34,829 nt of DNA from Pseudomonadota bacterium (GTDB lineage: Bacteria > Pseudomonadota > Gammaproteobacteria > Burkholderiales > Sulfuriferulaceae): NCBI GenBank assembly GCA_021790625.1, contig JAJYGL010000239.1:1-34829 (forward strand). Direction: 5' to 3'. The stretch's first letter is position 1. Every line of letters begins with the position of its first letter. A program made the position numbers and the translations under genes. The notes under the pieces were generated by a model. It made no database searches. It saw nothing but the letters and a program-made list of their open reading frames with translations, and was not told the DNA's origin. Of this stretch, positions 1,520 to 32,904 are shown one piece after another.

Positions 1520-2569
1520 ATGCTCCCCATCAGACTGACCCAGTTTTCCCATGGCGGCGGCTGTGGCTGTAAAATCGCCCCAGCCCTGCTGCACGACATG
1601 CTCAAGGATTTACCCTCCGGCATCTTGCCCCCTGCATTACTGGTTGGCACAGAAACCAGCGATGACGCGGCTGTTTACCAACTCAACGCCGAACAAGCCA
1701 TCATTGCCACCACCGATTTTTTCATGCCTATCGTAGACGATCCGCACAGTTTTGGCGAAATCGCCGCGACCAATGCCATTTCCGACATCTATGCCATGGG
1801 AGGAAAACCTTTGTTTGCATTGGCCATCGTCGGCATGCCCATCGACAAATTACCACTGGATGTCATGCAGGCGATTCTGGCCGGCGGCGAATCTGCCTGC
1901 CGTCGAGCCGGCATTCCAGTAGCCGGCGGACACTCCATCGATACAGTCGAACCCATTTATGGACTGGCTGTCATCGGCTTGGCACACCCCGACCACATCA
2001 AACGCAACAATGCGGCGCAAACCGGCGATGTCCTCATTCTTGGCAAAGCACTCGGCGTGGGCATTTTAAGTTCCGCGCTCAAAAAAGGCGAATTGCCCGA
2101 CGAAGGCTATGCCGAAATGCTCGCCACCACCACCCAACTCAACACCCCTGGCACCAGTCTGGCCAACCTGCCGGGTGTCCACGCCATGACCGACGTCACC
2201 GGTTTCGGCCTGCTCGGCCATCTACTCGAAATCTGTCGTGGCTCGCAACTGGATGCCCACATCGACTTTAACCGCCTGCCGTTACTGCCCGCTGCGGTAA
2301 CACTGGCCAAATCGGGCCATGCTCCTGGCGCGGCTGCCCGCAACTGGTCAAGTTATGGTGCTGATGTCAGCCTGCCGGAGAATACCCCGCTCTGGCAAAA
2401 AAATCTGCTCTGCGACCCGCAAACCAGCGGCGGCCTGTTGATCGCCTGCGCGCCCGACACCGTTGAACAGGTACTAACCTGCTTTGCCAACGATGGTTTT
2501 ATGCGTTCCACAACCATTGGCACGCTGCAACACGGGATACCGCACGTTCATGTCCATACCCAATCATGA
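1520..2569 (+). CDS. selD: Selenide, water dikinase (Cys form)
   Basis: RLTQFSHGGGCGCKI, SDDAAVY, TTDFFMPIVDDP, GGHSID, TDVTGFGLLGHL and DPQTSGGLL motifs; AAGGA upstream of the ATG. Confidence 0.97.
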   Translation: MLPIRLTQFSHGGGCGCKIAPALLHDMLKDLPSGILPPALLVGTETSDDAAVYQLNAEQAIIATTDFFMPIVDDPHSFGEIAATNAISDIYAMGGKPLFALAIVGMPIDKLPLDVMQAILAGGESACRRAGIPVAGGHSIDTVEPIYGLAVIGLAHPDHIKRNNAAQTGDVLILGKALGVGILSSALKKGELPDEGYAEMLATTTQLNTPGTSLANLPGVHAMTDVTGFGLLGHLLEICRGSQLDAHIDFNRLPLLPAAVTLAKSGHAPGAAARNWSSYGADVSLPENTPLWQKNLLCDPQTSGGLLIACAPDTVEQVLTCFANDGFMRSTTIGTLQHGIPHVHVHTQS

Positions 2570-2740
2570 ACGACACATCAATCACATCAACAAGATACTC
2601 TTCCTCCATGGGAACTTGTCGCTTGTCATCACCAGTAACAAATCAAAGCGTTTTTGTAACCTGATTTATCCCTGCCTCTGCCAAAATGAACGGGCATCAA
2701 CACTTGTCCATTTACCTGTTCATTCACGTGGAGGAATCCC

Positions 2741-3550
2741 ATGCAACCTACCCGTCATCCGCAACAAAAAAAATGTTCGATGGCTGACCAGATTCAGCAT
2801 CGCCCTGACCCTTGCCGTGGGCTTTATCCAGCCAACACTGGCAGCACAAACCAACGTAACACCGCTACGGGTGGTATCCACGCCCAACCCAAATGTCTTT
2901 CCGCTGTTACTGGCCATGAAACAAAATCCGCAACTGCCGGTCAGTCTGGTTCCCGTTGGAACAGGCAGCGATATCGTCAATGCGTTCTCCTCCGGCCAGG
3001 GGGACGCCCTGCTATCGATGACTTATACGGCAGCGCAGGATGTCACCTCTGGAAAAATCCCGCAACTGGAACTGGTTTCCGTCAACTTCTGGCGCGGGTT
3101 CTGGATTCTGGCGCCGAAATCGGCGCAAATCAGCCAGTTTTCGCAGCTGGCCAACGATGGTGTACTGATTGCCGGCCCCACAGCCGGCGGCAAGGGCGGC
3201 GGGCCTGATCTGATATTTCAGGCAGCAGCCCGGCAGGCAGGGATGGGCGCATCCAGTTTCAATCTGTGCTATCTGCCCGTGATGCAAGCTGCGCCCATGA
3301 TGGTGCAACAACAGCCCATGAACAGCAATTCCGCCTGCGCGTCAACCGACAGCATGGCGCCAACCGGCATCTCACTGGTAGAACCGGCAGCCACCGGACT
3401 GGTCATGCAAAGCAAAATGAGTACGGCCAGCAACGCAGTCGCCATCAATAAAGCCATTGACGTACAGACACTGTTTACCGATTATAATGCCTGGCCACAC
3501 ACCGAATTGCCACATGGCGGCATGTCGGTACTCGCTTCCGTACTGATTGA
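2741..3550 (+). pseudogene. Periplasmic substrate-binding-like protein (NitT/TauT-like), frameshifted at an A8 tract and 3'-truncated
   Basis: GGAGGA RBS precedes ATG 2741. That ATG is one base out of frame with the signal peptide and mature protein (NVRWLTRFSIALTLAVGFIQPTLAAQT...) across A8 at 2766-2773. After ~3550 the frame runs through the off-frame kinase sequence. Confidence 0.65.
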
Positions 3551-4500
3551 TCGGCGCCTTGCTCATCCAGTACAACCTGATTTTGCCGCTCAAGGCGCTG
3601 GAATCCGTTGCCTTGCGCATTGGTGACGGCAATATTGATGCCGAATGGCCTGAAAAAAATGCACTGCCCCTGGAATTCGTGCGCATCGTGGCAACCCTTC
3701 GGCAAATGCAGCAACAACTGCAACACCGCGAGCGCGAACGCACCATCATGCTGGCTGGCATTTCGCATGACCTACGCACCCCATTAACCAAATTATGGCT
3801 GGGCGTCGAGATGCTGCGAACCAATACCACCGAGAATGAAATTGTCGAGAATGAAGTTGTCGAACAACTCACCAGCCACATCAAAACCGCTGATCATATC
3901 ATCACCCAATTTATCGAATTTGCCCGCGACGGCAATGCCGAGCCTTTGAGCCTGTGTCACCCTCAAGCCATCATCTACCACGCTGCACAGGCAGCCGTTC
4001 CCGATTCTGCCTGGTTACATTTCGAATGGGGCGAGATGCCTGCCTGCCATCTCCGCGCAACAGGATTACAACGCATTGTCAGCAACCTGGTCGGTAACGC
4101 TGCCCGCCATGGCGCGCCACCAATTTTCATACAGGCCGGCTGGCACCACGGTTTTCTGCAACTGCGCGTCACCGATCATGGCAGCGGCGTGGCCGAACAA
4201 TTATTGCCGTCTATCGGTCAAGCCTTTACACGGGCGAACAGTACGACTCAAGCTGGTTTCGGCCTGGGATTGGCCATCGTCGAGCGCCTCGCTTCCGCCC
4301 ACGGTGGACAAATGCAATGGCGCAACGCGCCAGACGCGGGGTTTGAGGTCACAATCTGTCTGCGCACCACGCCAATCCCGTCAACACCCCATCAACACGC
4401 CGGCAACCACTCCAGCAACCAGCCCGACTCGCCATCTTGCGCCTGCCAGCCGCAAGCAACACCAACCCCCGGAATGCAGACCAACGCTTCCCCACAATAA
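3547..4500 (+). pseudogene. EnvZ/RstB-like sensor histidine kinase lacking its N-terminal sensor region
   Basis: Begins at the tail of TM2 plus HAMP (IGALLIQYNLILPLKAL). H-box LAGISHDLRTPL, N-box NLVGNAARHG, G1 DHGSG, G2 GFGLGLAIV. In-frame TGA lies immediately upstream (3544-3546), there is no RBS, and no cognate regulator is in the window. Confidence 0.75.
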
Positions 4501-9039: not shown

Positions 9040-11277
9040 TCAACGCGTCAAGGTCATGAACAGGCGCGTCATCTGTTCGGGCAAACGTGCAACGTGGTCA
9101 ATAATGGTGTGATATTTACCAAAAATATCATGTACATAATCACCCGCATGTGGGTCGAGACTGACGCACCAGACAGCAATACCTTCTGCAGCAAGCTCGC
9201 GTACCGCCATGCGCGTATCTTCAATCAGCATACGGGCATCACTGCTATCAATGTCGGCCGGTTCGCCATCGGTCAACAACAACAAAATCCGGCGCTCTGC
9301 CTGCTGATGCGCAAGGTAATGCGCGGCATGACGCATGGCCGCTCCCATACGGGTAGAATAACCGGCTTCCATGGCGGCCAGCCGCGCTTTGACAGGGTCT
9401 CCCCATGTCTCACTGTAGCCTTTGATATGCCAGAAACGAACATCGTGCCGGGTGTTGGAATGAAAACCGCTGATGGCGTATTTATCCCCCAGCGCGGCAA
9501 TTGCCCAACCCAGCAGACTGATGGCTTCCTGGCTCAGCATCAGCTTGCTTTGCGCGCTTCCGGCCGGCACGTCATTGAGCGATGCCGACAAATCCAGTAG
9601 CAACGATACGGCGATGTTCCGTCCATCATGGCGATGGCTGAAATTGACGCGCGGGTCAGGTATCGCGCCACTACGATAGTCCGTCAACGCGCGTATTGCC
9701 ACATCAAGGTCAAGATCGGTTCCTTCTTCCTGATAACGCTGGCGCACTTTATTTTGCGGTTTGAGCTGATCAATCAGGCGTTTCAACTGTCGGGATAGCA
9801 AACGGTGTTTATCGAGGATGTGATCAATCTTCCCGGCATCCGCAGCAGGGTGCAGGTGCTCATAAACACTGACCCAGTCTGGCCGATATTGCTCGCTAAC
9901 GTAATCCCATTCAGCATACAAACGAGGCGGCAAACGTTGACCGGTTTCATCGACGTGTGGTGTTGGCTTCGGTTTTTCGTCTTGCCCTTCTTCATCACCT
10001 TCCTCGATAAATTGCCACATCAGCCGGTTGTCGTCACGATAGTCAATCACCGTATCGTCAAACCAGACTTTGGGGCTGAAATCGTCTACCACCCGGGTTT
10101 TGGCAACCCAGGCCACGCCCAGCTCGGCCATCTCGGCGGTTGTGCTTTCTGTCTGCGCCAGACGGGCATGAAAACGGGACACAAAGTCCAACAAAACCGT
10201 GTCCTGATAACCATGATCGGGATATAACAAGGCGTACGACAGCAAGGTCAACCGATGTCGTATGCAGGCATGCCCAGGTGGGCAGGCGTGTGGATCGGGG
10301 TGCGGATGCAGGCGTTGCCAAGCTACGCGCAAACCTGGATAACGCCGTCTGGCCAGATATTCTACCCGCGCATCTTCGAACATCTCGGCCGCCATGCGTT
10401 GAAACGGACTCAAATTATCAGCGACAATACGCTGCGTCCAAAGTTTGTGGGCGCTCACATGCGCCAATAGCGCGCGATAGCGATCAATACCGCGTACCCC
10501 AGCCCTGTCGTCATACACTTCCGGCAGATGCAAACCCTGCGCATCAAAATAAGGAACCGGTTTACGCAAGGTATCATACGCCAGCGAGTAAGGAATAAAG
10601 CGCATCTCACTTTGCCACAATCCGGCCAGATACAGATCCAGCCTGCGCTCTGCATCGACAAATAGCGTACCGTGCCGTTCACGTTGCAACACTGCGCGGC
10701 TATCGGGTGTGGCCAGTAAAAAATAGTCGCGTTGCCGATCCGGATCGGCGAAATGGGCGCGTACGCCATATTCAACCCAGCGAGACAACCCGGAAAAAGA
10801 CAATAACTGCACGACTTGCGGAATGCTGGTAAGCAATTCGACCAGACATTCACTGGGATACATTTTATCCAGTCCATGCACTTTTGGGCTGGTGCGCTGC
10901 ATGGTATGCCAGAGCAGATGCAAATATTCGCGCAACAAGTCCAGACTTTCATAGGCACGCGCCACCGACCCCATACCCTGCAGTAACGGCGTCAGCGCAC
11001 GACCATTCGGAGTGCGGGTCAACCGTTGCACAAAAGTCAGTACGGTATCGATTGCCGCATCCCCCAGCAACGTGGCCACGCCAGGCATTTCTTCCAGAAA
11101 AGCCAATACAGGCGCTTCACCGCGACCCATGCGACAAATCTGTTCTGCGCCCGCGACATAAATCGCCAGCGCTTCCACCGACAAAGTGCGGGCGGCATAC
11201 GCATGACAATCCGGAAAAATGCGCTGAACGCTTTGAAATCCGCAGGAAAGACTTTCCACGACCTGCGATGTATTCAT
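9040..11277 (-). CDS. cbbO: RuBisCO activase adaptor with C-terminal VWA domain
   Basis: YAEWDY...YRPDW, DLDLDVAIR, MIDAS-type LLLDLSASLN, GYSTRMGAAMRHA, LLLTDGEPADID; lies downstream of cbbQ. Confidence 0.95.
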   Translation of the reverse strand: MNTSQVVESLSCGFQSVQRIFPDCHAYAARTLSVEALAIYVAGAEQICRMGRGEAPVLAFLEEMPGVATLLGDAAIDTVLTFVQRLTRTPNGRALTPLLQGMGSVARAYESLDLLREYLHLLWHTMQRTSPKVHGLDKMYPSECLVELLTSIPQVVQLLSFSGLSRWVEYGVRAHFADPDRQRDYFLLATPDSRAVLQRERHGTLFVDAERRLDLYLAGLWQSEMRFIPYSLAYDTLRKPVPYFDAQGLHLPEVYDDRAGVRGIDRYRALLAHVSAHKLWTQRIVADNLSPFQRMAAEMFEDARVEYLARRRYPGLRVAWQRLHPHPDPHACPPGHACIRHRLTLLSYALLYPDHGYQDTVLLDFVSRFHARLAQTESTTAEMAELGVAWVAKTRVVDDFSPKVWFDDTVIDYRDDNRLMWQFIEEGDEEGQDEKPKPTPHVDETGQRLPPRLYAEWDYVSEQYRPDWVSVYEHLHPAADAGKIDHILDKHRLLSRQLKRLIDQLKPQNKVRQRYQEEGTDLDLDVAIRALTDYRSGAIPDPRVNFSHRHDGRNIAVSLLLDLSASLNDVPAGSAQSKLMLSQEAISLLGWAIAALGDKYAISGFHSNTRHDVRFWHIKGYSETWGDPVKARLAAMEAGYSTRMGAAMRHAAHYLAHQQAERRILLLLTDGEPADIDSSDARMLIEDTRMAVRELAAEGIAVWCVSLDPHAGDYVHDIFGKYHTIIDHVARLPEQMTRLFMTLTR

Positions 11278-11283
11278 ACTGGT

Positions 11284-11367
11284 ATCAATCCTAGCGTCAA
11301 TTCTGACATCAATTCTGACATCAATTCTGACATCGATTCCGATATCAACTCTGACATCAACCCTTCA
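11284..11367. repeat. 7 x 12-bp imperfect tandem repeat filling the cbbQ-cbbO spacer
   Basis: atcaatcctagc gtcaattctgac atcaattctgac atcaattctgac atcgattccgat atcaactctgac atcaacccttca. Confidence 0.9.
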
Positions 11368-12183
11368 TCACGCGTCGAACACGGCGTCGATGGCGTGATG
11401 AAGGGTATCACAAATATCAGCGTCATCGCTAATGGGTTGCACCAGCGCCATGCGGCAAGCTTCGCGAGCGGCAATGCCCTGCGTCATCAACTGTCCGGCA
11501 TAGACCAGAAGCCGGGTTGAAATACCTTCATCCAGCCCATGCCCTTTCAAGGCGCGGGCAGTCTGGGCAATCTGCACCAACCGGACGGCGACCTGTTCAT
11601 CGACATGGCTTTCCTGCTGCAAAATGGCCGCTTCGGTAGCAGGCAACGGGTAATCGAACGATAACCCGGTAAACCGCTGTTTGGTGGATTGCTTCAAATC
11701 TTTCATCAGGCTTTGATAGCCGGGATTATACGAAATGACGAGCTGAAAATCCGGGTGCGCCATCACCAGTTCGCCTTTTTTATCCAATGGCAAGGTGCGC
11801 CGATAGTCGGTGAGCGGGTGTATGACCACCGTGGTATCCTGCCGCGCTTCAACAATCTCATCCAAATAGCAAATGGCGCCGTATCGCGCAGCAAGCGTCA
11901 ACGGACCATCCGCCCAGCGCGTACCGTTGGCATCCAGAAGATAACGCCCGACCAGATCGGCAGCAGTCATGTCTTCATTGCAGGCCACGGTAATCAGCGG
12001 TTTCTGCAGCCGCCACGCCATGTGCTCAATGAAACGTGATTTTCCACAACCTGTCGGACCTTTGACCATCACCGGCAAACGCGACCGCCAGGCTGCTTCA
12101 AACAGCGTGATTTCGTTGTGTTGCGGGCAATAATACGGTTCTCGCGTTACCCGAAAGGCGTCGATATCAAAAGTGTCAGACAA
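11368..12183 (-). CDS. cbbQ: MoxR-type AAA+ RuBisCO activase
   Basis: Walker A GPTGCGKS, Walker B CYLDEIVEARQD, ISYNPGYQ, KDLKQSTKQRF, GLDEGISTRLL; TTG start with GGAGA RBS. Confidence 0.96.
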   Translation of the reverse strand: MSDTFDIDAFRVTREPYYCPQHNEITLFEAAWRSRLPVMVKGPTGCGKSRFIEHMAWRLQKPLITVACNEDMTAADLVGRYLLDANGTRWADGPLTLAARYGAICYLDEIVEARQDTTVVIHPLTDYRRTLPLDKKGELVMAHPDFQLVISYNPGYQSLMKDLKQSTKQRFTGLSFDYPLPATEAAILQQESHVDEQVAVRLVQIAQTARALKGHGLDEGISTRLLVYAGQLMTQGIAAREACRMALVQPISDDADICDTLHHAIDAVFDA

Positions 12184-12228
12184 AATGCGTTCTCCGCAAA
12201 AACAACAAGATCATAAATAATGGAACGT

Positions 12229-12310
12229 CGTCACGCAGCCATCAACAAAAGGGACGGCCGCGTGACGGCGCTCCCGAATCCGGAGCAACACGACTCTCTG
12301 CCGGATTCGG
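12229..12310 (-). other. Two stem-loops in the cbbM-cbbQ intergenic region
   Basis: cgtcacgc(12229-12236)/gcgtgacg(12260-12267) and ccgaatccgg(12274-12283)/ccggattcgg(12301-12310). Confidence 0.65.
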
Positions 12311-12323
12311 TCCCAGCCGCAAA

Positions 12324-13703
12324 TTACTTGTGCACACCCAGTTTTTCGCGCCAACCCGGATACAACTTGTCAGCATCCTTGGGGAAGGATTCAAAAGCAC
12401 GGGCAAATTCTTTGTGCTCTTTGGCAAACTCGATCGGATCCGCACCGGCTTTCCAGCATTCATACGATTGGCGCAACGAAGTAGCACCGGCAGCCGGGCT
12501 GTCGATATGACCGTATGCCCCACCACCTGCCGTATTGATGACGTTGCCATGCCCCAGATTTTCAAAGAAACCCGGCAAGCGCAACGCATTCATGCCCCCG
12601 GAGATGATCGGTGTGGTCGGTTTCATGCCATACCATTTCTGAAAGTAGACCGGACCTTGGCACTCATCACGCTCAATCATGTAAGCGATATTTTTATCAT
12701 CGGCGTCACCTTCCATCTTGCCGTATCCCATGGTGCCAACGTGGATGCCGGAAGCACCTTGCAGACGGGACATCTTGGCCAGCACGAACGCGGTATAGCC
12801 CCGCTTGGCGGAAGGCGATGTCACCGCACCGTGGCCGGCGCGGTGATAATGCAGATATTGGCTCGGATACTGACGACGAGCGGTGGTGACCATGCCCGGA
12901 CCGCCAACATAGCCGTCGACCAGAAATGCCACCTTGTCGGCGTCCGGCCCAAAGACTTCCAGAATGTAGTCGGCGCGAGCGCACATCTCATGGTGATCAT
13001 CAGCAGTGATATTGGCAGAAAACAGTTTGGCCTGACCCGTTTCATCTTGCGCACGTTTCAGCGCATCGGCGACCAATGGAATGACCTTTTTCATCGGGCA
13101 GAACACCTGATTGCCTTGGGGTTCATCGTTCTTGATGAAATCCCCACCCAGCCAGAACTGGTAGGCGGCTTTGGCGAACGGCTCGGGGCGCAGCCCCAGT
13201 TTCGGCTTGATGATGGTGCCAGCGATATAGCCGCCATCCTTGATAGGGCGCCCAAGAATACGCCACATATCGCTGATATCGCGCGCTGGTCCGTCAAACA
13301 ACTGGATAGCACGTTCCGGCACATGAAAATCAATCATTTTGGCGTGTTCGATATCGCCCATACCCTGATTGTTGCCGATCGCCAACGTCAGGAAAGACAC
13401 AATCATCATGCGACCATCGGTGACATTGCGATCGAACAGTTCCAGCGGATAAGCGATGCGCATGTCTTCGCTGGCTTCATCAATGTAATACACCAACGCG
13501 TCAACGCCGCGCGTAAAATCATCGGTGGTCGAAACTTCCACATTGGTGCCAGTAGAAGATTCTGCGGCAAAGTGTGCAGCGGCCTCAAGATAACCATGAC
13601 CGGACTTCGGTTTCATTTTATAAGCAACCAGAAGGTGTTTTCCGCCCTTGATCAGTTCGTCTTCTTTCAGACTGAGATCAGAATAGCGTGCAGATTGATC
13701 CAT
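12324..13703 (-). CDS. cbbM: Form II ribulose-1,5-bisphosphate carboxylase/oxygenase
   Basis: MDQSARY start, [31 protein letters not shown], catalytic [31 protein letters not shown]; 459 aa, no small-subunit gene. Confidence 0.99.
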
Positions 13704-13787
13704 GTAATGTTCTCCAATTCGTTAAAGGTGCGGCGCGCAGCGCGTGCTATCGTTATGCCACGTCGACACTATACGCTTACAATTCCA

Positions 13788-13834
13788 TAAGGAATATTCA
13801 GTAATTTTGATTATTTGTATAAGTAAATACTTAT
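13788..13834. promoter_or_regulatory. Putative CbbR (LysR-type) binding boxes upstream of cbbM
   Basis: TAA-N7-TCA (13788-13800), TCA-N7-TGA (13798-13810) and palindromic ATAAGTA-aa-TACTTAT (13819-13834, TAA-N8-TTA) fit the TNA-N7/8-TNA pattern, in an AT-rich tract. Confidence 0.65.
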
Positions 13835-13880
13835 CGATTTATTTTTATTCAGGAATTACCGAATAAATTTCGCGCCGACC

Positions 13881-13912
13881 AAAACAAAACCCCGCCATAT
13901 CTATGGCGGGGT
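13881..13912 (-). terminator. Rho-independent terminator downstream of the NYN gene
   Basis: Minus strand reads ACCCCGCCATA-GA-TATGGCGGGGT followed by TTTGTTTT. Confidence 0.8.
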
Positions 13913-13963
13913 AGAGCGCCCAATTCGGGCTGAGGACAACAACGCAAGACGACAAGCGGTTGG

Positions 13964-14093
13964 CAACAAGGGGGTAAGGAACCGCTGATTATGGGTGGGC
14001 GCTGGCTCGAAGGGCATCCCTGAGATTACAACAAGGGGGTAAGGAACCGCTGATTATGGGTGGGCGCTGGCTCGAAGGGCATCCCTGAGATTA
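13964..14093. repeat. Perfect 65-bp tandem duplication covering the NYN stop codon
   Basis: caacaagggggtaaggaaccgctgattatgggtgggcgctggctcgaagggcatccctgagatta occurs at 13964-14028 and 14029-14093. Confidence 0.95.
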
Positions 14094-14893
14094 CGCTTTT
14101 CTTGCTCGTCTAGCGCGCGTCCGAGCTCTTTTCGGCCTGTAGACAACAGACACCGATCCACTTCCTGCGGAAGCACACCCTCTTTTGGGATCTGTGCCTG
14201 CAATTCACGCGCAAGCGTAGCAAAGACGGTCTGAGCGATAACCGCGAAATCTCGCGGGTTAACAGGCAGGGCCTCTTCCGGTTGCACGGGCGCAGACACT
14301 ATAACGGAGGAGGGGGTCAGATTTAGATCCGGAACAGGGGCAGTCACAACCTTTGCCGACGCCGCAGTCACAAATTTCCGCACCTCGATATCATCCCAAT
14401 GAGTTTTGCGGTCAACTTCCGCCTTAAGGTACGGGGATGTCGCTTCCGTCGGGCCCATGGATAGCAAATGTACTCGGATACCCAGATTTTGCGCTGCCAT
14501 TACGCCGGGGGTTAGGTCTGCATCGCCTGTAACGAGTAGTGCTTCGGAAATCGCCTTGGTTTGCGCTAGGCTAATCATGTCCGCAATAATGAGGCCATCT
14601 ACCGCTTTTTGGGCGCCGACGCCATTGCGAGTACCGAGCCGAAGCTTAAAGTCGTCCATGTCTTCGATGGAGCGATGGCAGATCGTCTTACCACTAGGTC
14701 CCGGGCCATCGTACCAGTACACGCGAAGCAATTCTGCATTGGGGAACTGAGTACAGACTTGCTCAAGAAGGCTCTCACGGAGAGTGGGGTAGCAAATGGT
14801 CACCTCATCACGGCTAGCTTTCTTGCCCCAGATGATATGCACTGCTTGCACCCAAAAGTAACCTGCATCCACAAATACCGCGATTCTACGCAT
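14054..14893 (-). CDS. NYN-domain (PIN-like, LabA/DUF88) predicted ribonuclease
   Basis: AVFVDAGY, LRVYWYDG, QKAVDGLIIADM and LLVTGDADLTP supply the acidic NYN active-site residues; Pro-rich linker and helical C-terminal domain. ATG 14893 with AGGGG upstream. Confidence 0.88.
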   Translation of the reverse strand: MRRIAVFVDAGYFWVQAVHIIWGKKASRDEVTICYPTLRESLLEQVCTQFPNAELLRVYWYDGPGPSGKTICHRSIEDMDDFKLRLGTRNGVGAQKAVDGLIIADMISLAQTKAISEALLVTGDADLTPGVMAAQNLGIRVHLLSMGPTEATSPYLKAEVDRKTHWDDIEVRKFVTAASAKVVTAPVPDLNLTPSSVIVSAPVQPEEALPVNPRDFAVIAQTVFATLARELQAQIPKEGVLPQEVDRCLLSTGRKELGRALDEQEKRNLRDALRASAHP

Positions 14894-14899
14894 GGCTGC

Positions 14900-14992
14900 C
14901 CCTAGAAATGCGAAAGGGCGCCGAAGCGCCCCTTCTAGTAGAGGTGCCTTTGGGGCACCGATGTAGCAGGTGTTTTTGGACACCGAGTAGAA
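14900..14992 (-). ncRNA. Candidate structured leader/antitoxin RNA upstream of NYN
   Basis: CUACUC-GGUGU(CCAAAA)ACACC-UG-CUACAUC-GGUGCC(CCAAA)GGCACC-U-CUACUA-GAAGGGGCGC(UUCG)GCGCCCUUUC. The structure is read from sequence; expression is not shown. Confidence 0.5.
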
Positions 14993-14997
14993 GCCTC

Positions 14998-15027
14998 ACT
15001 ATAAAGCATGATTCGAGAATTTGTCAA
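14998..15027 (-). promoter_or_regulatory. Sigma70-type promoter for the leader RNA and NYN gene
   Basis: Minus strand TTGACA (15027-15022), 18-bp spacer, TATAGT (15003-14998). Confidence 0.7.
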
Positions 15028-15157
15028 GTGGTGTATAAATCAGTGTGCTTGATTTACCAGTTTTCATCTACGGCTTGGCATCGTCCTCCCGGCTACGACC
15101 TGCGCCGTACGCGTCATGATCTTCCCGATTTGACCCGCAACGCGACTCTTGGAGGAG

Positions 15158-16582
15158 TTAATCAGCGGTTCCCTGTGTATCGATGGCAGAGGCCCAGTTG
15201 ATAGCATCCATGTGCCATTGGTTGAGCTGTCGGGCATCCAGCCCAAGCGAGTCGGACAGTTGTTCAATCTGCTGCTGATCCGCCTGTTCAAAAGCGATGG
15301 CAAGCCGCAAAAAGGGGGCATACGGCCCATGCCGCTGTAAGAGCGCGCGTGTGACATCTTCAGTAAGATTCAAGCGTTCAATGGCTTGCGCCATGGTGGT
15401 ATTCAGCAACACATCCAACAGGGAAAAAATACCGATAATAAACAACTGGTCGGCCGCCTGCGCGGAAAGCAGTTGTTTCCCCAGCGTTTCGGTCAGCCGC
15501 GCCCGCACCAGCGCGTGTTGTAACAAAGCACGGTCGCGTGGAGAAGATGCATCATCGTCATTGAACAATAACAAGGTCAACCAGCGATACAGCGGCTCAT
15601 AGCCCAGATACATCAGCGCTTGCGCAATCGACTCTATTTTACGGCCAAGACCATTGAGCGGACAATTGATAAAAGCCAACAACTTGTATGGCAGCAGAAC
15701 GTCATGTTTGATGGCGTCATTCAGCACGGCAAATTCGGCGTGCTGTGCCGTCAGGTTGAGCAATTCTATCACCCGCAAGCGGTTGGCATCGATATGATTA
15801 GGCAATCCGGGAGATTTTTGCGCGAAATAATAACCCTGAAAAGCGTCAAAACCCATTTTCGAGGCCGCCAGATAATCATCCTCGCAACCCACGTCACGGG
15901 CGATAATCGGGCAGTTCTTCAAATGACGTAACGAAGCAAGCCGTTGACTCAACACCTGCGCATCCCAACCATGCAAGTTAAACCGCAGATAGCACGCCAG
16001 ACCCTGCAATTCTTGCGCGTCGGCCTCGTCCGGCAGATCATCAAATGCCAAGGCATAACCTTGCTCGATATAATGGCGACACCGATCGGCAAACTCCGCG
16101 TCCAGCTCCGCGCCCTTGACATCGATCACCAGCACGACGGACTCACAAGGAAGCATGTTCACCCACGTTCCCGCCAGAGAAGTTGCCGAAAGGCCAATAA
16201 ATGTGGTGCGATGCCCGCTGAACGAATGCAGATCGATTTGCACCAGCGCCGAAATCAGTGTTTCGTCGGCCAGTTGCCGGTCAGCCGCCGACAGGGATTC
16301 GTTCTCGACATGCCGAAACGCAAAATCGTACCCCAGCACTGCATGCTGCCGGTCCAGAACCGGCTCGCGCAACAAAAAGTTTTGCATGGAAGCAGGAACA
16401 CCTGGCGACGGTTGCGGCAAAACCCATTCCATTTCTTCCTGGCGGACAGGCGAGGGCGGTGCTTCGGCGTTGGCCGGAACTGGCGGCGCAGCAGACGTCA
16501 CCGACTCATCCGACGGCTTATCCGTTCCGGCAGGCTCATCGGTTACTTTACCCGTTGATTTCCACCAACGCCCAAAAATCAA
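15158..16582 (-). CDS. EAL-HDOD (YuxH/PdeH-like) protein with degenerate EAL motif
   Basis: REPVLD...GYDFAFR, LAFDDL, GFDAFQGYYF, YKLLAFIN, RARLTETL, FIIGIFSLLDVLL. Likely TTG start at 16582 behind GGAGAG (the ORF track extends to 16627). Confidence 0.85.
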   Translation of the reverse strand: MIFGRWWKSTGKVTDEPAGTDKPSDESVTSAAPPVPANAEAPPSPVRQEEMEWVLPQPSPGVPASMQNFLLREPVLDRQHAVLGYDFAFRHVENESLSAADRQLADETLISALVQIDLHSFSGHRTTFIGLSATSLAGTWVNMLPCESVVLVIDVKGAELDAEFADRCRHYIEQGYALAFDDLPDEADAQELQGLACYLRFNLHGWDAQVLSQRLASLRHLKNCPIIARDVGCEDDYLAASKMGFDAFQGYYFAQKSPGLPNHIDANRLRVIELLNLTAQHAEFAVLNDAIKHDVLLPYKLLAFINCPLNGLGRKIESIAQALMYLGYEPLYRWLTLLLFNDDDASSPRDRALLQHALVRARLTETLGKQLLSAQAADQLFIIGIFSLLDVLLNTTMAQAIERLNLTEDVTRALLQRHGPYAPFLRLAIAFEQADQQQIEQLSDSLGLDARQLNQWHMDAINWASAIDTQGTAD

Positions 16583-20321: not shown

Positions 20322-21824
20322 TCATTTTTTATCTTGCAATCCTTCCAACGCTGCATGTCCCAATATACCGCTGGCGGCGAGCAATTCCAGTCTGCTGGCT
20401 TCCCATTGCGCCAGACTTTGTACCCATTGCTGCCTGGCGTCGGTAAGCGATGACTGTGCAGTAAGCAGTTCAATCATGGTCCCAACACCGTGGTCATACC
20501 GATTTTGAGCAGACTCCATGGTCACTCGGGCGCTTTCCAGCAAAGATCTGGATGCATCGATGGCATCAAATGCCATCACAGCATCGCCATAGGCAGATAC
20601 AACCTGTTTCATTATTTGATGCTCCGTGTCCTGCATTTGCGCCTGCGCCACATCCGCCTGCGCTTTTGCCTCATCAATTTTATAATGTTGCATGAAGCCA
20701 TCAAAAATCGGCACATTCAAGGTCAAACCGACAGTGGTTATGTTGTTCTGGACGGGTTGCAGCCCTTGGTTGGGATAACCATTTTGATCGTACGTGGCGA
20801 CAAAGCTCAAGGTTGGCAATCCATCCGAACGCGAACTGCGTATTTTTGCCTGGGCGGCTACCCACCGTTTCCGAGCAGCACGAATTGCTGGCTGGTAATG
20901 TTCTGCGAAGTGTATCCAATCCGTCAATGCCGCTACTGTTCTGGATTTGTCTGGCGCTAACAAATCAGGCAGCACTATGGTCATATCTGGCGCCAAACCC
21001 AATGCATAAATCAGCTCGGCCAGCGTTTTGTCGCGCTCACCCGTATCGCGCGCAAGTGACAGATCCGCTTTCGCCGCTGCGGTTTGTGCCTGTGTCAGAT
21101 CACCGCGATCTCCCGTTCCGTGCTGCAGTTTCCTGTTTGCACTATCTTCGATCCGATGCGCCAATTCTTTTGCTTTTATGCTCGCATCAACTTTCGCTTG
21201 AGCCGCAATGGCGTTGAAATAATCCGAGATCACTTCTCCAAGCAATTTCTGCATTTCAGCATCATGATCATCGATTGCGGCTTTCAGCGCATTATCAGAG
21301 ACTTCCAGATTGGCAGACCTGCCACCAAAATCGAGCAACAACCAATTCAGAGAGGCATAAGTCATATGTCCTTGTGTCGTATTGTTTGCCGATGCGAAAC
21401 CAGGATATACCGTACGATTATTCAGTTCGCTGATCTGGGCTGAAACTGTTGGCAAATACGCGGATCGCGCTTGACCAACCTGTGCGACCTGAACCTTGAT
21501 TTGTGCCCATGTATCGCGAAGCTGCGGATTGCTGCAAAGCGCCAGATCAACAGCATCGACAAGCGACAATGCACGGCTCATGTCTATCTGCGGCGGGCAG
21601 AGTACTGGAGCAGCATCGCCTGGCAATGTAAAACCTTCCGGCAAGCTGGCGGGCTGAGCCGACAGCGGGTCATCCATCCAATGGCGTAAAATCCCCGATT
21701 GGTGCGTGGCTGGCTGCGGAGTCGTCTCCGCAGCTTGAGCCGGACGGAAACCATTCAAGAACAACATGAAACATACTGGCAGGCAAATCAGAGCACCAAA
21801 CATGATTTGCCGTTTACCGCTCAT
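20322..21824 (-). CDS. TolC-family outer membrane efflux protein
   Basis: LSLVDAVDLALCSNPQL, ARSAYLPTVS, LLLDFGGR, LNVPIFDGF, RYDHGVGTMIELLTAQ; overlaps the hlyD-like stop. Confidence 0.92.
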   Translation of the reverse strand: MSGKRQIMFGALICLPVCFMLFLNGFRPAQAAETTPQPATHQSGILRHWMDDPLSAQPASLPEGFTLPGDAAPVLCPPQIDMSRALSLVDAVDLALCSNPQLRDTWAQIKVQVAQVGQARSAYLPTVSAQISELNNRTVYPGFASANNTTQGHMTYASLNWLLLDFGGRSANLEVSDNALKAAIDDHDAEMQKLLGEVISDYFNAIAAQAKVDASIKAKELAHRIEDSANRKLQHGTGDRGDLTQAQTAAAKADLSLARDTGERDKTLAELIYALGLAPDMTIVLPDLLAPDKSRTVAALTDWIHFAEHYQPAIRAARKRWVAAQAKIRSSRSDGLPTLSFVATYDQNGYPNQGLQPVQNNITTVGLTLNVPIFDGFMQHYKIDEAKAQADVAQAQMQDTEHQIMKQVVSAYGDAVMAFDAIDASRSLLESARVTMESAQNRYDHGVGTMIELLTAQSSLTDARQQWVQSLAQWEASRLELLAASGILGHAALEGLQDKK

Positions 21825-23157
21825 GCAAGCTCTCGGTTGTATGCCGTATCAAAGGCGACAGGAAATATTCGATGACCCGCCGCCGGCCTGTCCGGATTTC
21901 CACCGTTCCTGACATGCCCGGATCAAGCGTACGTTTCGCGCCATCCACATCCAGAACAGGCCGCAGCAATGTGACCCGGACTGCATACTGCAATCCTTTT
22001 TTCTGATCTTCAACGGCATCACGTGCGACCAGGGTGACCCGTGCTGGAACGGTTCCATATTTCGTGTAATCAAAGGCATCGATTTTGACTTCGGCGCTTT
22101 GTCCGACATGAACAAACCCCACATCCTTGTCTGCAAGCATGGCTTCCATCGTCACAGACCTGTTTTGCGGCACAATCTGCATCAGCGCCTGTGCCACCGG
22201 AACTGCTGCACCAACCGTATGAACCTGCATTTGTTGCACGGTGCCAGCAACCGGCGAACGCAACACAAGCTGATTGATCTCGATTTGGACCCTTGCCGCA
22301 TCGGCTTGGGCATCTGCCGCTTGTTTGGTTGCCTGCGCCAGATCATCTTCAGCATTCTTGCCGGTTTCCGCAACCAGGGCAGCAAGCTGCATGCGAGCAG
22401 CGTCAAACTGGCCCTGCAAATCAACCTCGGTTTGCTTTTTGGTCAACGCATCCGTTCGTGCCACATCATTGGTTTCCGCCAACACGGCGTAATCCTCTGC
22501 AATACGTCTGGCAAGCGGCAATGCGGCGCCAAAACGCGCCATATCAGCACGCAACCGATCTCGCTTGGCCACAAAATCCGCCCACTGACCTTGCAAGTGC
22601 ATAGCCGCGTCACGCCACAAACCATGCTCAACCCCGGCTATCGGTGGCATTTGTGGTTGTCGTCCGCTTCGAAGCGAAGCCATCATCGCGCGCGATTGTG
22701 CGGCCTGGAGAACAGCCATTTGCCAGTCGGCCAGATCCTTTATCCGCTCATCCTCAAACGCGCGTGAATCCAGCAGGATCAAAGCTTGTCCTGCCTGAAC
22801 CCGCTGCCCGTCCTCGACAAGGATTGCTCTGACCGTGGCGACCTGAACAGCAGTAATAACCTTGGTCTGTCCATCGGGGATAATCTTGCCTTGGGCATCC
22901 ACCGTAATGTCGATATGTCCGAAAATCGACCAGATCAGCAAAATTGCCAACAGGGAAACCAACAATCTCGCCACCCAACGTGCCGTGGGTGACACCGGTT
23001 TGTGTTGCAGCGCCAGTGCGGCCGGCAAAAATTCGGCTTCATGGGAACGAAGTTCGGGCAAAGCCATTTCGTGTCTTTTGCGCCACCAGAACCGGAATAC
23101 GCTGGCATATCGCCCAAACAGTTCGCCCCATGCCTCCAAACGATGCTTGAAATTCAT
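21814..23157 (-). CDS. HlyD-family T1SS membrane fusion protein
   Basis: EAEFLPAALAL, TM helix, AQGKIIPDG, LRSPVAGTVQ, DVGFVHVGQ, KIDAFDYTKYG, PGMSGTVEIRTGRRRVIEYFLSP. Confidence 0.95.
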   Translation of the reverse strand: MNFKHRLEAWGELFGRYASVFRFWWRKRHEMALPELRSHEAEFLPAALALQHKPVSPTARWVARLLVSLLAILLIWSIFGHIDITVDAQGKIIPDGQTKVITAVQVATVRAILVEDGQRVQAGQALILLDSRAFEDERIKDLADWQMAVLQAAQSRAMMASLRSGRQPQMPPIAGVEHGLWRDAAMHLQGQWADFVAKRDRLRADMARFGAALPLARRIAEDYAVLAETNDVARTDALTKKQTEVDLQGQFDAARMQLAALVAETGKNAEDDLAQATKQAADAQADAARVQIEINQLVLRSPVAGTVQQMQVHTVGAAVPVAQALMQIVPQNRSVTMEAMLADKDVGFVHVGQSAEVKIDAFDYTKYGTVPARVTLVARDAVEDQKKGLQYAVRVTLLRPVLDVDGAKRTLDPGMSGTVEIRTGRRRVIEYFLSPLIRHTTESLHER

Positions 23158-25322
23158 GCGGCTGCTCTTATTCCCTGTTGCAATGCGTACAAGTGCGCAT
23201 AAACCCCTTGTGGATGATTCACAAGTTCAGTATGGGTGCCGGTTTCAATGATTTGACCGCGATCCATGACCACAATCCGATTCGCATCACGTACCGCCGT
23301 CAAACGATGGGCAATGATCAAAACCGTACGCCCGGCGGAAATACGACGCATATTGGCTTGAATAACACTTTCCGATTCATAATCCAGCGCACTCGTTGCC
23401 TCATCAAAAATCAGAATACGCGGGTTGCTGATAAGCGCCCGTGCGATTGCAATCCGTTGCCGCTGCCCTCCGGATAATCCTGTGCCATGTTCTCCGACCA
23501 TGGTGTCATATCCTTCGGGTAATTCACAGATGAAGTCATGCGCGCCCGCAAGCGTAGCCGCCGCAATGATCGCTTCGATTGACAAAGCCGGATTTCCCAG
23601 CGCAATATTATCCCGTACGGATCGGTTGAACAGCACGTTCTCTTGCAGCACCACACCAATCTGCTGCCGCAAGGATGCCGTATCGATCACCGATATGTCC
23701 TGACCATCAATCAGAATCCTGCCGCGATCCGGGACGTACAGACGTTGAACCAGACGTGTCAACGTGCTTTTACCCGATCCTGATCGCCCGACAATCCCGA
23801 TGACTTCTCCCGGACTGATTTCAAGCGATACTCCGCGCAAAACATCCACAGAATCGGGGTGATAGCGAAATGAAACCTGATCAAACTCTATGGAACCATT
23901 CAAACGCGGCAAACGGGTTTTATTGCCGGCTATTTCCGGATGTGTATTCAGAATATCGCCCAGACGGCTCATGGATATTCCGACCTGCTGGAAGTCGTTC
24001 CACATCTGCGCCAGCCGCAATACAGGACTGGACACCTGTCCGGCCAGCATATTGAACGCCACCAGTTCTCCCACCGTCAGTTGATGGTCGATAACACTCT
24101 TGGCACCAAACCATAGAATGGCGGCTGTCACCAGTTTGCTGACCAATTGCACCCCGTTGCTGGCAAATGTGGCCACGTTCGTCACCGACAATCCGGCCGA
24201 CACATAACCGGCAAGTTGCTGATCCCAGCGTTTGACCCATCCGGGTTCAACAGCCATCGCCTTGATTGTATCGATGCCACTGATGGTTTCGACCAGAAAC
24301 GACTGACTTTCAGCGCCACGATTGAATTTTTCGTCCAGTCGCACCCTGATGGCCGGAGTAAAGACTACCGAAAGCAGGATGTACAACGGAAACGATGCAA
24401 CCACAATCAGCGTCAGCTTGGCGCTATACCAGAACATGACCGCCAGAAAAACAACGGAAAACGCCAAGTCCAGCACCAGCGTCATCGCGTTGCCGGTCAG
24501 GAACGACCGGATATTTTCCAGCTCCCGAATGCGCGCCACCGAATCCCCTACACGCCGCGCCTGAAAATACGCCAATGGCAATCCAAGCAAATGCCTGAAC
24601 AGGCGCGCACCCAACTCGACATCGAGCTTGCTGCTGGTGTGGGCAAATACCCAGGTGCGAATGCCCGTCAATACGACCTCGAACACATTGGCCACAACCA
24701 ACCCGATGACAATGACATCCAGCGTGTCCATTGCCCGGTTTACCAGCACCTTGTCCATGACCACCTGAAAGAACAATGGCAAGACAAGGCCGATGATTTG
24801 CAGCACCAATGAGAGCAGCAGAATTTCACCCAACAAACTGCGATACTTGACGATTGCCGGGATAAACCAGGTAAAGTCAAATTTGGCCAGACTTCCGGCA
24901 AAACTGGCCTTGCTGGAAAACAGCAATAACTCGCCTGTCCACCGGTTCAGCAGTTCCGAAAGCGAAAACAACAGAGGCTGTTCGCCCGCATACTGGACCA
25001 GCACACGGTCAGGAGCGGCATTGGGCTCCGCAGAACCGACCCGTGCGATAATAAAGAACCGCCCATCACGGTCCTGCGCAATTGCCGGCAGCGGCGCATG
25101 TGTCAAGCGTTCCGGTCGTTGCTGCACGCTCCTCGCGCTCATGCCGAGATAATCGGCCGCAAGCAAAATCGTCTGTGCAGTTAAGGGTTGATGTCCAAAC
25201 TGATGGCGCAACGCAACCTCATCCGCCGCAATCTGGTGAAATTGCGCCATGGCAAGCAACGCCCATAACCCACTGTCAGGCACAGCTTCCGACTGCGCCT
25301 GACCTGTAGTCAACTCACTCAT
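23154..25322 (-). CDS. HlyB-family T1SS ABC transporter with C39-like domain
   Basis: DSGLWAL (no catalytic Cys), FDFTWFIPAIVKY, PLFFQVVMDKVLV, GRSGSGKST, LSGGQRQR, ILIFDEATSALD. ATG 25322. Confidence 0.95.
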   Translation of the reverse strand: MSELTTGQAQSEAVPDSGLWALLAMAQFHQIAADEVALRHQFGHQPLTAQTILLAADYLGMSARSVQQRPERLTHAPLPAIAQDRDGRFFIIARVGSAEPNAAPDRVLVQYAGEQPLLFSLSELLNRWTGELLLFSSKASFAGSLAKFDFTWFIPAIVKYRSLLGEILLLSLVLQIIGLVLPLFFQVVMDKVLVNRAMDTLDVIVIGLVVANVFEVVLTGIRTWVFAHTSSKLDVELGARLFRHLLGLPLAYFQARRVGDSVARIRELENIRSFLTGNAMTLVLDLAFSVVFLAVMFWYSAKLTLIVVASFPLYILLSVVFTPAIRVRLDEKFNRGAESQSFLVETISGIDTIKAMAVEPGWVKRWDQQLAGYVSAGLSVTNVATFASNGVQLVSKLVTAAILWFGAKSVIDHQLTVGELVAFNMLAGQVSSPVLRLAQMWNDFQQVGISMSRLGDILNTHPEIAGNKTRLPRLNGSIEFDQVSFRYHPDSVDVLRGVSLEISPGEVIGIVGRSGSGKSTLTRLVQRLYVPDRGRILIDGQDISVIDTASLRQQIGVVLQENVLFNRSVRDNIALGNPALSIEAIIAAATLAGAHDFICELPEGYDTMVGEHGTGLSGGQRQRIAIARALISNPRILIFDEATSALDYESESVIQANMRRISAGRTVLIIAHRLTAVRDANRIVVMDRGQIIETGTHTELVNHPQGVYAHLYALQQGIRAAA

Positions 25323-25332
25323 ATTTCTAAAT

Positions 25333-28300
25333 TCAATGCCAGTTGGCGGCCAGCACCGGAGCAAGTTGTTGTTGCTGGGTCGTGCTCAGATTCATTTGAC
25401 CCGACGGGGGCGGAGTCATGGATGCCATCGCCTGCACCAGAGAATTGATCCCGCTAGCCGAGATCGTGTCCCCCGATCCATCCCTGACAGTTCCAATCTG
25501 ATAATACGTGCTGTCAAACCAGTTGGTTACCGTCTCGGTTTCCGACGTGCCGTCAACGGTGATAAGCAGATTGTTGCCCGAACGACTGAACCAGAGCTGA
25601 TCTGCTGTCACATCTGAACCAAATGCCAGCGTGTCTGATGCGCCATTGGAAACGCTAAACGAATTAGCTCCGCTGCCATTGGCCAGCGTCAATGTTGCGG
25701 CAGAACCCATATTCACCGAATTATTCGATCCGTTCATCGTGGCATTGCCATTGACAACGAGTCCTGTCACGCCGGTTGCGTTGATCGTGTCCGAATTGCC
25801 GTTTATCGTCAGCCCCGTCGTTCCGGTCACATTGATCGTGTTGCTGTTGCCGCCAACGGTCAACCCGCTGACATTGTTATCATTGACCGTGTCACCAGTC
25901 AGATTGAGCGTACTGTAATTGCTGCTGACATTGACCGCCACACCCGAACTGGTCAGGTTCAGTGTATCGTACGATCCCGTCACCGACACGCTGCCGAAGG
26001 CATCGCCCCCCGTCTGGTTCAGCGCGTTGCCATATCCGGCCAGCGTCAGCGCATCACCGGTGGCATTTGCCGTGACATCAAATATGCCGTAATACCCCGC
26101 AATGGTGGTGCTCGTGTTGGCTGCCTGCTCGATCACATCCGCCGTCCCGTGGTACACGGTTTCCGTGATCGTATCATTACTGCCACTGGCCAGCGTCAGT
26201 GTGCTGGCTCCCATGTTCACCGTGTCATTCGAGCCGGTTAGCGTGGCGCTGCCGGTCAGGTTCATCGTGCCCACGCCGCTGGCCGTGATCGTGCTCGACC
26301 CGCCGTTCACCGTCAGGTTCGTGAGGCCACTTGTCGCATCGATGACGCTCGAATTGCCGTTCACCGTCAGGTTCGCCACGCCGCTGGTGTCAACCGTGTT
26401 GCCGTTGCCGTTCACCGTCAAATAGTTCGTGCTGCTGGCCGTGACCGTGCTGCTGGTCAGGTCGAGCGTATCGTAGTAGCCGTTGCCGCTCACAGTCACC
26501 GCTGCACCTGTGCTGGTCAGGTCCAGCGTGTCTTCACTTCCCGTGACCGACACGCTACTGAATGCATCGCCCCCCGTCTGGTTCAGCGCGTTGCCATATC
26601 CGGCCAGCGTCAGCGCATCACCGGTGGCATTTGCCGTGACATCAAATATGCCGTAATACCCCGCAATGGTGGTGCTCGTGTTGGCTGCCTGCTCGATCAC
26701 ATCCGCCGTCCCGTGGTACACGGTTTCCGTGATCGTATCATTACTGCCATTGGCCAGCGTCAGTGTGCTGGCTCCCATGTTCACCGTGTCATTCGAGCCG
26801 GTTAGCGTGGCATCGCCAGACAGGTTCAAGGTGGTAATACCGCTTGTGTCTATCGTATTGCCGTTGCCGTTCACAGTTAACGAATTGGCATTGCTGGCAG
26901 TAATCGTGCTGCCGCCCAGATTAAGCGTATCGCTATTCCCGCTGACAGTAACCGCCACGCCGGTGCTCGTCAGGTTCAGGGTGTCACTGGAGCCTGTGAC
27001 CGACACGCTGCCGAAGGCATCGCCTCCCGTCTGCGTCAGCGTATTACCGCCACCCGCCAGCGTCAGCACATCGCCGGTCGCCTGCGCCGTCACGTCGAAC
27101 GTGCCAGTATTTCCGCTCAGAGTATTGCTCGAATTTGCCGCCTGTACAAAGAAATTGATGAAATTTCCCGATTGCGTCACCGTGTTGCCGCTGCCACTGG
27201 CCAATGTCAGCGTCACAGGCGTACCCACGCTTACCGTGTCATTCGATCCGCTCAGTATAGTACTGCTATCCAACACCAGCGACGCATCATTTGATGAAAC
27301 AACGACAGAAGCCTGCCGGGTCGTCCCCAAGGTGGCGATAGTATTTTGAAACAAGGTTGACGGAGATGGGTAATACGCATTGAGTGCGCTCACAATACCA
27401 TTGTATGCACTCGATCCGGACAAGAATGTGCCAAATTCAAGTTGTTGCATCGTACTCATACTGCTCAAAGCATTGACAAGTCCGGAAACGTCATAAGTAA
27501 ACGATTGCGTCGTCGGGTTATAGCTCAGCTTTACATCTGTCAACAAATTCTGATTTGTTCCGTAATTCAGCAAACAACCGCTGACATAATTGACCAGTTG
27601 ATTCCATGCCGCCTCCACCATAGGAACGCCCGCCATCGTCACTAAGGTCGTAGACCAGCCACTATTGTTTGAATACTGGGCGCCGACGAATTTGGACAGC
27701 GCATCAATTTCGCGTGTGTCTCCCGTGAAATGATAAGCCTCCTCAGGAGAATTATTCTGCACCCCCGTCCAGGTAAAAATCAGGTTGCTGATCAATGACG
27801 GCTGTTCCGCTGGTGTGGCGGCAAGGTACTGCTTGACCAGATTGGCAAGGTTACCGGTGGTATCCAGCGCCATCGCCACTTGCAGATTATGCACATCGCC
27901 CCAGCCGGCCACATCGGGCAGGTTTGCATAGGCGCTATTGACGGTACCGGCGCTTTCGTCGATGGTATTGGAGGTGTTGATGGACATGTTCATGTCCGAG
28001 AGCGTGCCGGTCGTGCCGTTGCCATAGGTGACGGTGCTGGTCGCGAGCGTCTTGTCGCCGTTGGCATCCGTTGTGTTGACCGCCGTCGAATTCAGGCTGA
28101 TGGAGGTAATGCCCGCCTGCGCCAGCGTTTCAAGGTGTCCAGAGCCGGGCTGGCCGTTGGAACCCACCCAGATCTCGATCTGGTTGAAATCCGTATCGGA
28201 CGCGTTGATCACGCCATCGTGATTGGTATCCAGTGTCGCCAGTTGGGTAAACCCGGCCTGCCCAAGTTTGTTGCCGTTCTGGTTGGTGGTGCTGCTGCCG

Positions 28301-32683: not shown

Positions 32684-32904
32684 TGGCGAACTCCTTCTTG
32701 ATAAGACGGGTTCACATGAACGCTCTGGTTGCCAGTAATAGCAAGACGAACCGCACTCGATTCGCGTGATTCGCAACCAGGGGGAACGGCGTGCATTCGC
32801 AATAGTGCTGCGGCCAGAAGATCGGCGATTTCGCGTTGCGGGCGCCGGGGACGGGGTTCTGTCACCGACTGGCGAAGAGTAGAGGGGAATTCCGGTTTTG
32901 ACAT
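32680..32904 (-). CDS. Small hypothetical protein of the island backbone
   Basis: 74 aa, EIADLLAAALLR...NQSVHVNP; stop overlaps the DUF2924 start (ATGA). Confidence 0.6.
   Translation of the reverse strand: MSKPEFPSTLRQSVTEPRPRRPQREIADLLAAALLRMHAVPPGCESRESSAVRLAITGNQSVHVNPSYQEGVRQ

Follow-up and report, generated by a model that had tools for sequence, protein, structure and literature searches.

The window, meaning the whole stretch of 34,829 nucleotides that was analysed, carries on its minus strand an intact gene for a NYN-domain protein, preceded by a promoter and a structured leader and bracketed by MITE ends. The NYN module as a whole measures about 1 kb, and its features, in the order in which the minus strand is read, are as follows.

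15069..15172, minus strand: left end of a genome-wide MITE, whose inverted repeat supplies the end of the upstream HDOD gene, both its last codons and its stop.
14998..15027, minus strand: sigma70-type promoter with TTGACA (15027), an 18-nt spacer and TATAGT (14998), an 11/12 consensus match.
14990-14987 and 14941-14938, minus strand: further CUAC motifs, read from the sequence; with that of the linker below, the three CUAC lie at plus-strand 14987, 14963 and 14938.
14969..14984, minus strand: distal hairpin (hairpin 1), 5-bp stem and variable loop.
14960..14968, minus strand: single-stranded linker with an invariant UA (CUAC here), from the sequence and 21 linkers.
14943..14959, minus strand: proximal hairpin (hairpin 2), the core motif, 6-bp stem and conserved CCAAA loop.
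14912..14935, minus strand: terminator-like GC hairpin with a 10-bp stem, UUCG loop and weak U-tract, ending 18 nt before the ATG at 14893.
14897..14904, minus strand: ribosome-binding-site-like purine run, from the sequence; aligned homologs have a G-rich run ahead of the start.
14054..14893, minus strand: NYN-domain RNase gene, 279 aa, an intact ORF from the ATG at 14893 (Pfam PF01936, E 8e-12).
14043..14056, plus strand: 14-bp MITE inverted repeat, 100% complementary to 15159-15172 and holding the NYN stop codon.

The earlier note had described the promoter, the three CUAC motifs, the hairpins, the UUCG stem-loop and the intact NYN reading frame, and each was found where it had placed them. 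By consensus scoring, the TTGACA/TATAGT promoter was the best among 7 candidate sites in 13000-16500, and NYN transcription is predicted to start near 14991. Folding of the 113-nt leader yields three hairpins with an energy of -45.3 kcal/mol (z -3.35), a stability that 0/200 shuffles matched; together with the conservation and covariation of the motif across homologs, described below, this bears out the view that the upstream RNA is structured beyond chance. The third hairpin has only 4 U in 8 nt and was not called at 14912-14935 by a strict terminator scan, and we predict it to be leaky. An alternate fold near the ribosome-binding site, CUAGAA with UUCUAG, can indeed pair in the window sequence but is absent from the consensus of 21 homologous leaders. 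At gathering score, a search of the window against Rfam 15 returned tRNA only, with nothing on the leader, and 18 homologous loci likewise gave only tRNAs; the best sub-threshold match was RsmW (E 0.93), and the sub-threshold matches are of the order expected by chance. The abiF RNA motif (RF03085) was not matched by the leader in the Rfam search. Mimicry of an anticodon arm by the hairpin found no support, the best alignment reaching 8/17 identities against the 24 tRNAs available from a genome that is 78% complete, a set that does not include tRNA-Trp.

NYN (PF01936) is the only Pfam family matched by the 279-residue protein. In the AlphaFold model (pLDDT 90.7), a NYN domain (residues ~1-177) containing D9, D99, D124 and D126 is followed by a disordered linker and a basic C-terminal domain of three helices (~214-277). 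The nearest solved folds are VPA0982 (2qip, Foldseek E 7e-8) and the NYN domain of MARF1, and all four aspartates are retained in 81/83 homologs. The protein has the PIN-like fold and acidic active site of PF01936 ribonucleases, and from the homologs we infer that it is a metal-dependent RNase. For the C-terminal domain no clear fold match emerged (best Z 6.0; no Foldseek match at E<=0.001), which does not imply a novel fold; its likeness to 1q1v, a helical domain that binds DNA (Z 5.7, rmsd 2.6, 58 aligned residues), is within noise. In other searches, 0/25 alignment members matched NCBIfam, a PDB sequence search gave 0 matches, blastn against E. coli genomes gave none, an atlas search using a homolog (P0026) returned NYN clusters only, and PADLOC 2.0 gave one weak match, HEC-09 (E 6e-4), spanning 69 residues. 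The bacterial NYN/LabA cluster is of unknown function in the PIN classification, as far as its accessible text goes (PMC5499597).

Homologous loci were gathered from genomes (28), from metagenomes (the best 80 of 172) and from a virus (1), giving 110 including the window. Four of the 110 had no mappable N-terminus and were dropped, leaving 106 loci with 83 distinct proteins. The window clade, marked by W after DAGYx, comprises 59 of these 83 proteins and yielded 55 non-redundant leaders; the other 24 serve as the outgroup. The NYN tree comes from a quick search without bootstrap. Named hosts belong to Pseudomonadota, Acidobacteriota, Desulfovibrionaceae, Myxococcota and Synergistota. The Desulfovibrio homologs (L022-L027) are 480-530 aa long, and their terminator, with a tract of 7 U, is found at a distance of 97-220 nt from the start; one locus (L078) encodes a repeated C-terminal domain.

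In these homologs we anchored the search on the CCCAAAG-like loop alone, at <=250 nt upstream, and tested pairing afterwards, which avoids circularity. All five flanking pairs were present at 43/67 loop-like sites in clade leaders versus 7/765 elsewhere in the loci, and among the controls fully paired sites numbered 0/26 in antisense and 0/7 in outgroup leaders; 39/55 clade loci have a fully paired loop site. When 53 loop-anchored units (50 distinct; 2/55 leaders have no anchor) were aligned by sequence only, 94% of cells in the proximal hairpin were paired, with 5/6 pairs compensatory and 52 cells with two-sided changes across the 50 distinct sequences. The percentage paired and the covariation score were reached by 0/500 shuffles, both for this alignment and for one of 21 leaders, whereas the compensatory-pair count alone (5/6) was attained by 39/500 shuffles of the unit alignment; slid controls were 33-59% paired overall and 33-53% in the unit alignment. 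The 21-leader alignment, which is hand-picked and consists mostly of two-unit leaders, recovered all three hairpins with 97.6% pairing and 16/22 compensatory pairs, the distal hairpin having 98% of cells paired and 4/5 pairs compensatory and the terminator-like hairpin 8/11. The consensus consists of simple hairpins, as given by RNAalifold, which cannot predict pseudoknots.

A covariance model of the motif gave 58 matches at E<=1 in 85 sources, 54 of them in NYN leaders, mostly training sequences, and the remaining 4 elsewhere in the NYN loci. In the window's own genome the sole match of model R1 was the proximal hairpin (150 of 173 candidates scored), and a held-out locus (L138) scored 34.7 bits. 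One locus has an additional motif copy of 27 bits ~270 nt upstream of the NYN start (L017 37-72). In 45/55 clade leaders, versus 1/292 random windows, the units are followed by a terminator-like hairpin that carries no fewer than 4 U; its U-tracts are modest, reaching at least 5 U in 30/45 terminator-bearing leaders, and by consensus match a promoter of at least 9/12 precedes 30/45 of these leaders versus 4/292 random windows. The comparison of homolog leaders proposed in the earlier note thus finds the hairpins conserved, covarying, specific to the NYN clade and located between promoter and terminator-like hairpin. Its picture of repeated hairpins holds for part of the family only: a crude caller, which misplaces some units, counts two units in 22 loci, three in 1 and a single unit in 23, and of the 24 spacings between units 20 are 23-28 nt. 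The loop that it described as kept between the sister hairpins is conserved in the proximal hairpin across the 21 leaders, where it reads CCAAA, but the distal loop is highly variable. In the linker between the hairpins UA is invariant (21/21), with C before it in 16/21 and C after it in 15/21. The covarying RNA motif that accompanies this mobile NYN clade across phyla is real and uncatalogued.

Palindromes just downstream of a promoter might also be DNA operators, with the C-terminal helical domain, given its weak likeness to 1q1v within the noise range, acting as an autorepressor. This is the least probable of the readings considered here and highly unlikely. G-U pairs outnumber A-C pairs 15 to 0 and 14 to 0, a bias suggestive of sense-strand RNA, and the asymmetric loop is strongly conserved while the stem sequence varies freely with pairing kept.

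Improbable too, if slightly less so, is a leader that serves as an attenuator or host-factor site, with signal-controlled read-through independent of NYN binding. Such a reading draws on the terminator-like hairpin directly ahead of the gene and on the tandem small hairpins, a common layout for protein binding. It sits poorly with the consensus fold of the 21 leaders, in which small hairpins and terminator do not overlap, and with the negative test of a pseudoknot between loop and RBS: loop variants show no improved pairing to the RBS region of their own locus, and the sister clade behaves alike. In addition, the motif spans phyla with very different regulators and follows the NYN tree, the sister-clade hairpin differs, and Rfam offers no match.

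The sister clade keeps the order promoter, hairpin, terminator and gene, but its hairpin is different and longer, with UA usually in the loop or 3' linker. Single-sequence folds, made for 20 of 22 loci, gave z < -2 for 17/20 leaders, and a terminator-like hairpin is present in 19/24. RNAalifold on a MAFFT alignment of 18 sister-clade leaders gave no consensus structure, so this hairpin is described from the single-sequence folds. One sister-clade locus, on plasmid pNGR234a, adjoins a RES-Xre toxin-antitoxin pair, and the clade also occurs on seven viral contigs. A further clade (YFYASA, 11 members) is leaderless.

Three single cases point to a mutual dependence of RNA and enzyme. In a relic in genome G005 (L146 2383-2560), the NYN gene is deleted after codon 13 and promoter and terminator survive, with both small stems broken and the model score down from 38.4 to 18.2 bits; this relic sits between two secretion or pilus genes. 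At L077 the leader is missing, and the protein has lost both the QK motif and D126. In one low-depth contig, positions 14466-15038 are deleted, which removes the promoter and leader along with half of the gene at its 5' end. There are counter-cases: at L083 the gene is broken and the leader is kept; at L007-L009 a single hairpin lies ~20 nt from the start codon, there is no terminator, and the catalytic aspartates are intact; and L011 and L057 have degenerate hairpins, again with the catalytic aspartates intact. Moreover, 14 leaderless proteins keep the four aspartates, namely the 11 of the YFYASA clade and those of L076, L090 and L117. Judging by these sequences, NYNs without a full leader are tolerated in the absence of excess RNA.

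The main rival to the RNA antitoxin favoured below is a feedback leader acting in cis only, in which NYN would recognise its own 5' leader hairpin and cut or block its own mRNA, the leaky terminator would limit expression, and the RNA would be a sensor rather than a stoichiometric antidote. Covariation, the gene dependence seen in the G005 relic and clade specificity are accounted for equally well in this way, and L007-L009, with the hairpin ~20 nt from the start and no terminator, fit it, as do the 23 single-unit loci. It also has precedent, since autoregulatory leaders are known for the RNase genes rne and rnc. We nevertheless consider it rather unlikely. In 45/55 loci the hairpins precede a terminator-like hairpin, which would put most copies on a separate short RNA, needless for a pure operator, and both the duplication of units at 23-28 nt and the mobile, patchy spread suit a toxin-antitoxin system better.

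A relative that is 92% identical (G010, L030) has 191 other bases and no NYN module between the same flanks, so on this comparison the module is an acquisition. The 191-bp insert of the relative (L030 1310-1500) has a palindromic repeat of its own, and the gap between HDOD and RuBisCO genes may be an insertion hotspot. NYN homologs were found in 0/26 other genomes of the genus and 0/399 of the class, and the wider NYN family in 7/400 genomes of the phylum. The downstream terminator that the earlier note had assigned to the NYN gene (13912-13889) predates the insertion, because the module-less relative already carries an equivalent hairpin at the same site.

The MITE, which we take to be IS5-like by its end and target patterns, is abundant, with ~56 left and ~54 right ends in the genome (G000), and copies of 275 and 302 bp elsewhere in that genome bear 4-bp YTAR target duplications. 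Simple transposition of the NYN module as MITE cargo was rejected: the module is bracketed by MITE ends, but the flanks have no matching target duplication. Positions 13964-14093 are a perfect 65-bp tandem duplication that takes in the 3' end of the NYN gene together with the MITE inverted repeat and flanking sequence; the contig of run X3 has one copy and X8 a different junction, so that either strain variation or an assembly artefact lies behind it.

No conserved neighbour, and therefore no candidate protein antitoxin, emerged from 141 of the 157 ORFs that flank the gene at 50 loci. Defence or mobile-element genes lie <=2 ORFs away in 14/50 loci and 36/50 have no such marker, counts that carry no background rate; the PADLOC neighbour check took in 75 ORFs. 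The neighbours at these 14 loci are type I RM, BREX, Thoeris, Schlafen, PLD-helicase, PDC-S27, TniQ/TniB, MobA (2), terminase, phage tail genes, Bro-N, umuDC-like genes and an IS5 transposase. In L071 and L119 the module lies within prophage tail regions, adjoining NlpC/P60 and tail-tip J genes in L071. Two exact-pattern scans of viral contigs for phage decoy RNAs each gave a single match, and this was the leader of L119, itself a viral NYN locus.

Type III loci have been found by their gene order, namely promoter, repeats, terminator and endoribonuclease, and for tenpI imperfect repeats and single-unit cases are reported (PMC12283969, accessible part). ToxIN, CptIN and TenpIN, as described there, share this order with the NYN locus, where one promoter, by consensus match, precedes RNA and gene and a predicted terminator-like hairpin lies between them. 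They differ in that the window's toxin candidate has another fold, matching NYN and none of their protein families, and in that its units are predicted as ~25-nt simple hairpins in 1-2 copies rather than pseudoknots, to which the prediction is blind. The AbiF-RCd22 system of C. difficile, in which the RNA attenuates and neutralises in cis and in trans, is also close in layout, having a promoter, two small motif copies, a Rho-independent terminator and a single RNase-type gene, an RNA of ~100 nt and an association with mobile elements (10.1101/2025.04.15.648962, accessible part). AbiF, however, is of the Abi_2/AbiD/F family linked to Cas13, whereas the window protein is NYN/PIN-like, and the window RNA does not match RF03085. 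AbiF toxicity and rescue in trans are demonstrated in the accessible text of that work; for the NYN module both are predictions. The protein family test fails and Rfam gives no match, so the NYN locus is not a member of ToxIN, CptIN, TenpIN or AbiF; in its mode of action it probably resembles a type III or AbiF system.

The Cas13 origins to which AbiF-type systems are linked (10.1101/2025.04.15.648962, accessible part), and ~25-nt repeat units with variable parts that recall a minimal array, lend some appeal to a cofactor or guide scaffold, in which NYN and a processed hairpin would form an active ribonucleoprotein aimed at other RNAs. We think this very improbable, falling between the attenuator and the DNA operator: linkers are just 8-10 nt and conserved, with no spacer-like variability, there are 2-3 units at most, and partner genes are absent.

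Other relatives share the enzyme and not the arrangement. The CRISPR-associated NYN of B. fragilis and LabA/COG1432 belong to the same Pfam family with the catalytic Asp set (PMC11346440, PMC5499597, accessible parts). The B. fragilis gene neighbours cas6, and its product trims crRNA non-specifically and was produced in E. coli without a partner RNA (PMC11346440, accessible part); the window clade, for its part, adds a conserved C-terminal helical domain. VapBC resembles the NYN module in its PIN-like RNase superfamily (PMC5499597, accessible part) and in forming standalone mobile modules, but VapB is a protein antitoxin, whereas the window module has an RNA motif and no conserved neighbouring ORF. 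The accessible text of PMC11346440 and PMC5499597 describes no cis RNA partner of any NYN. Our literature search, from whose scope subscription papers were largely absent, found no NYN-RNA antitoxin and no NYN leader motif. The main texts of motif catalogues, as accessible, contain no NYN, LabA or DUF88 term, the small supplement of PMC8632094 gave no match for these terms, and the supplements of PMC5737381 and PMC11109978, outside our scope, might list the motif. Within these sources and Rfam, the proposal that this is not an already described family stands.

The best explanation, and in our view a somewhat probable one, is that the NYN locus belongs to a new family of type III-like toxin-antitoxin modules, its hairpin RNA being predicted to bind the likewise predicted NYN ribonuclease and to inhibit it. 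An RNA antitoxin is favoured because the gene order is that of the type III working definition and mirrors AbiF/RCd22, and it is preferred over a cis feedback leader because the hairpins would be on a terminated transcript and vary in copy number. Most transcripts would stop at the leaky terminator, giving a ~80-nt RNA in excess over NYN mRNA, and since the small hairpins lie upstream of the terminator, the terminated RNA would carry them. NYN protein would bind the CCAAA-loop hairpin, probably via the basic C-terminal helical domain and the active-site groove, and stay inactive. When transcription stops, upon phage takeover or loss of the element, the unstable RNA would decay and NYN would degrade cellular RNA, which could result in abortive defence or addiction. 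Cutting of the UA linkers, which would free single units, is the least supported step, and cleavage at CUAC is the weakest part of the proposal, because the coding sequence shows no clear cut-site avoidance and the B. fragilis NYN is non-specific. In NYN coding sequences YUAY stands at 0.93 versus 0.91 in neighbours, with no stronger depletion, and CUAC at 0.84 versus 0.99 (z -2.3, from sequences that are not independent).

RNA antitoxins have been described for very few protein families, and if the RNA-antitoxin reading is true, this design arose again on another nuclease fold, the PIN-like NYN. Part of the bacterial NYN/LabA family, which is large and for the most part uncharacterised, would then gain a function, and the 17-nt hairpin, a very small RNA, would serve as inhibitor or tag of an RNase and as a potential switch. 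We are more hesitant about a broader reading, possible but in our view a little more doubtful than credible: that NYN ribonucleases with this C-terminal domain represent an independent origin of RNA antitoxins on a PIN-like fold beside the ToxN and AbiF types, that protein and antidote RNA co-diversified into short CCAAA-loop hairpins and the long UA-loop hairpins of the sister clade, and that the modules spread as one-gene anti-phage defence on prophages, plasmids and transposon ends. Even if the leader served feedback only, its RNA motif would still be an uncatalogued one with strong covariation, linked in several phyla to a single clade of the enzyme.

Several other features were noted in passing. 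Directly downstream of the insertion, at 9040-13703, lie a RuBisCO large-chain gene and then AAA-type and vWA-type ORFs, which we read by eye as a cbbM-cbbQ-cbbO cluster. Also by eye, 20322-28983 appears to hold the genes of a type I secretion set, among them one for a repeat protein of 1216 aa, and 30328-34829 serine recombinase, HTH and ImmA-like genes that suggest an integrated element. Elsewhere in the same genome, on contig C133 (~2247-4120), two inverted MITE left ends lie around 1873 bp; a 139-aa ORF within this bracket resembles a PIN-domain toxin by eye and may be a second MITE-bracketed RNase.
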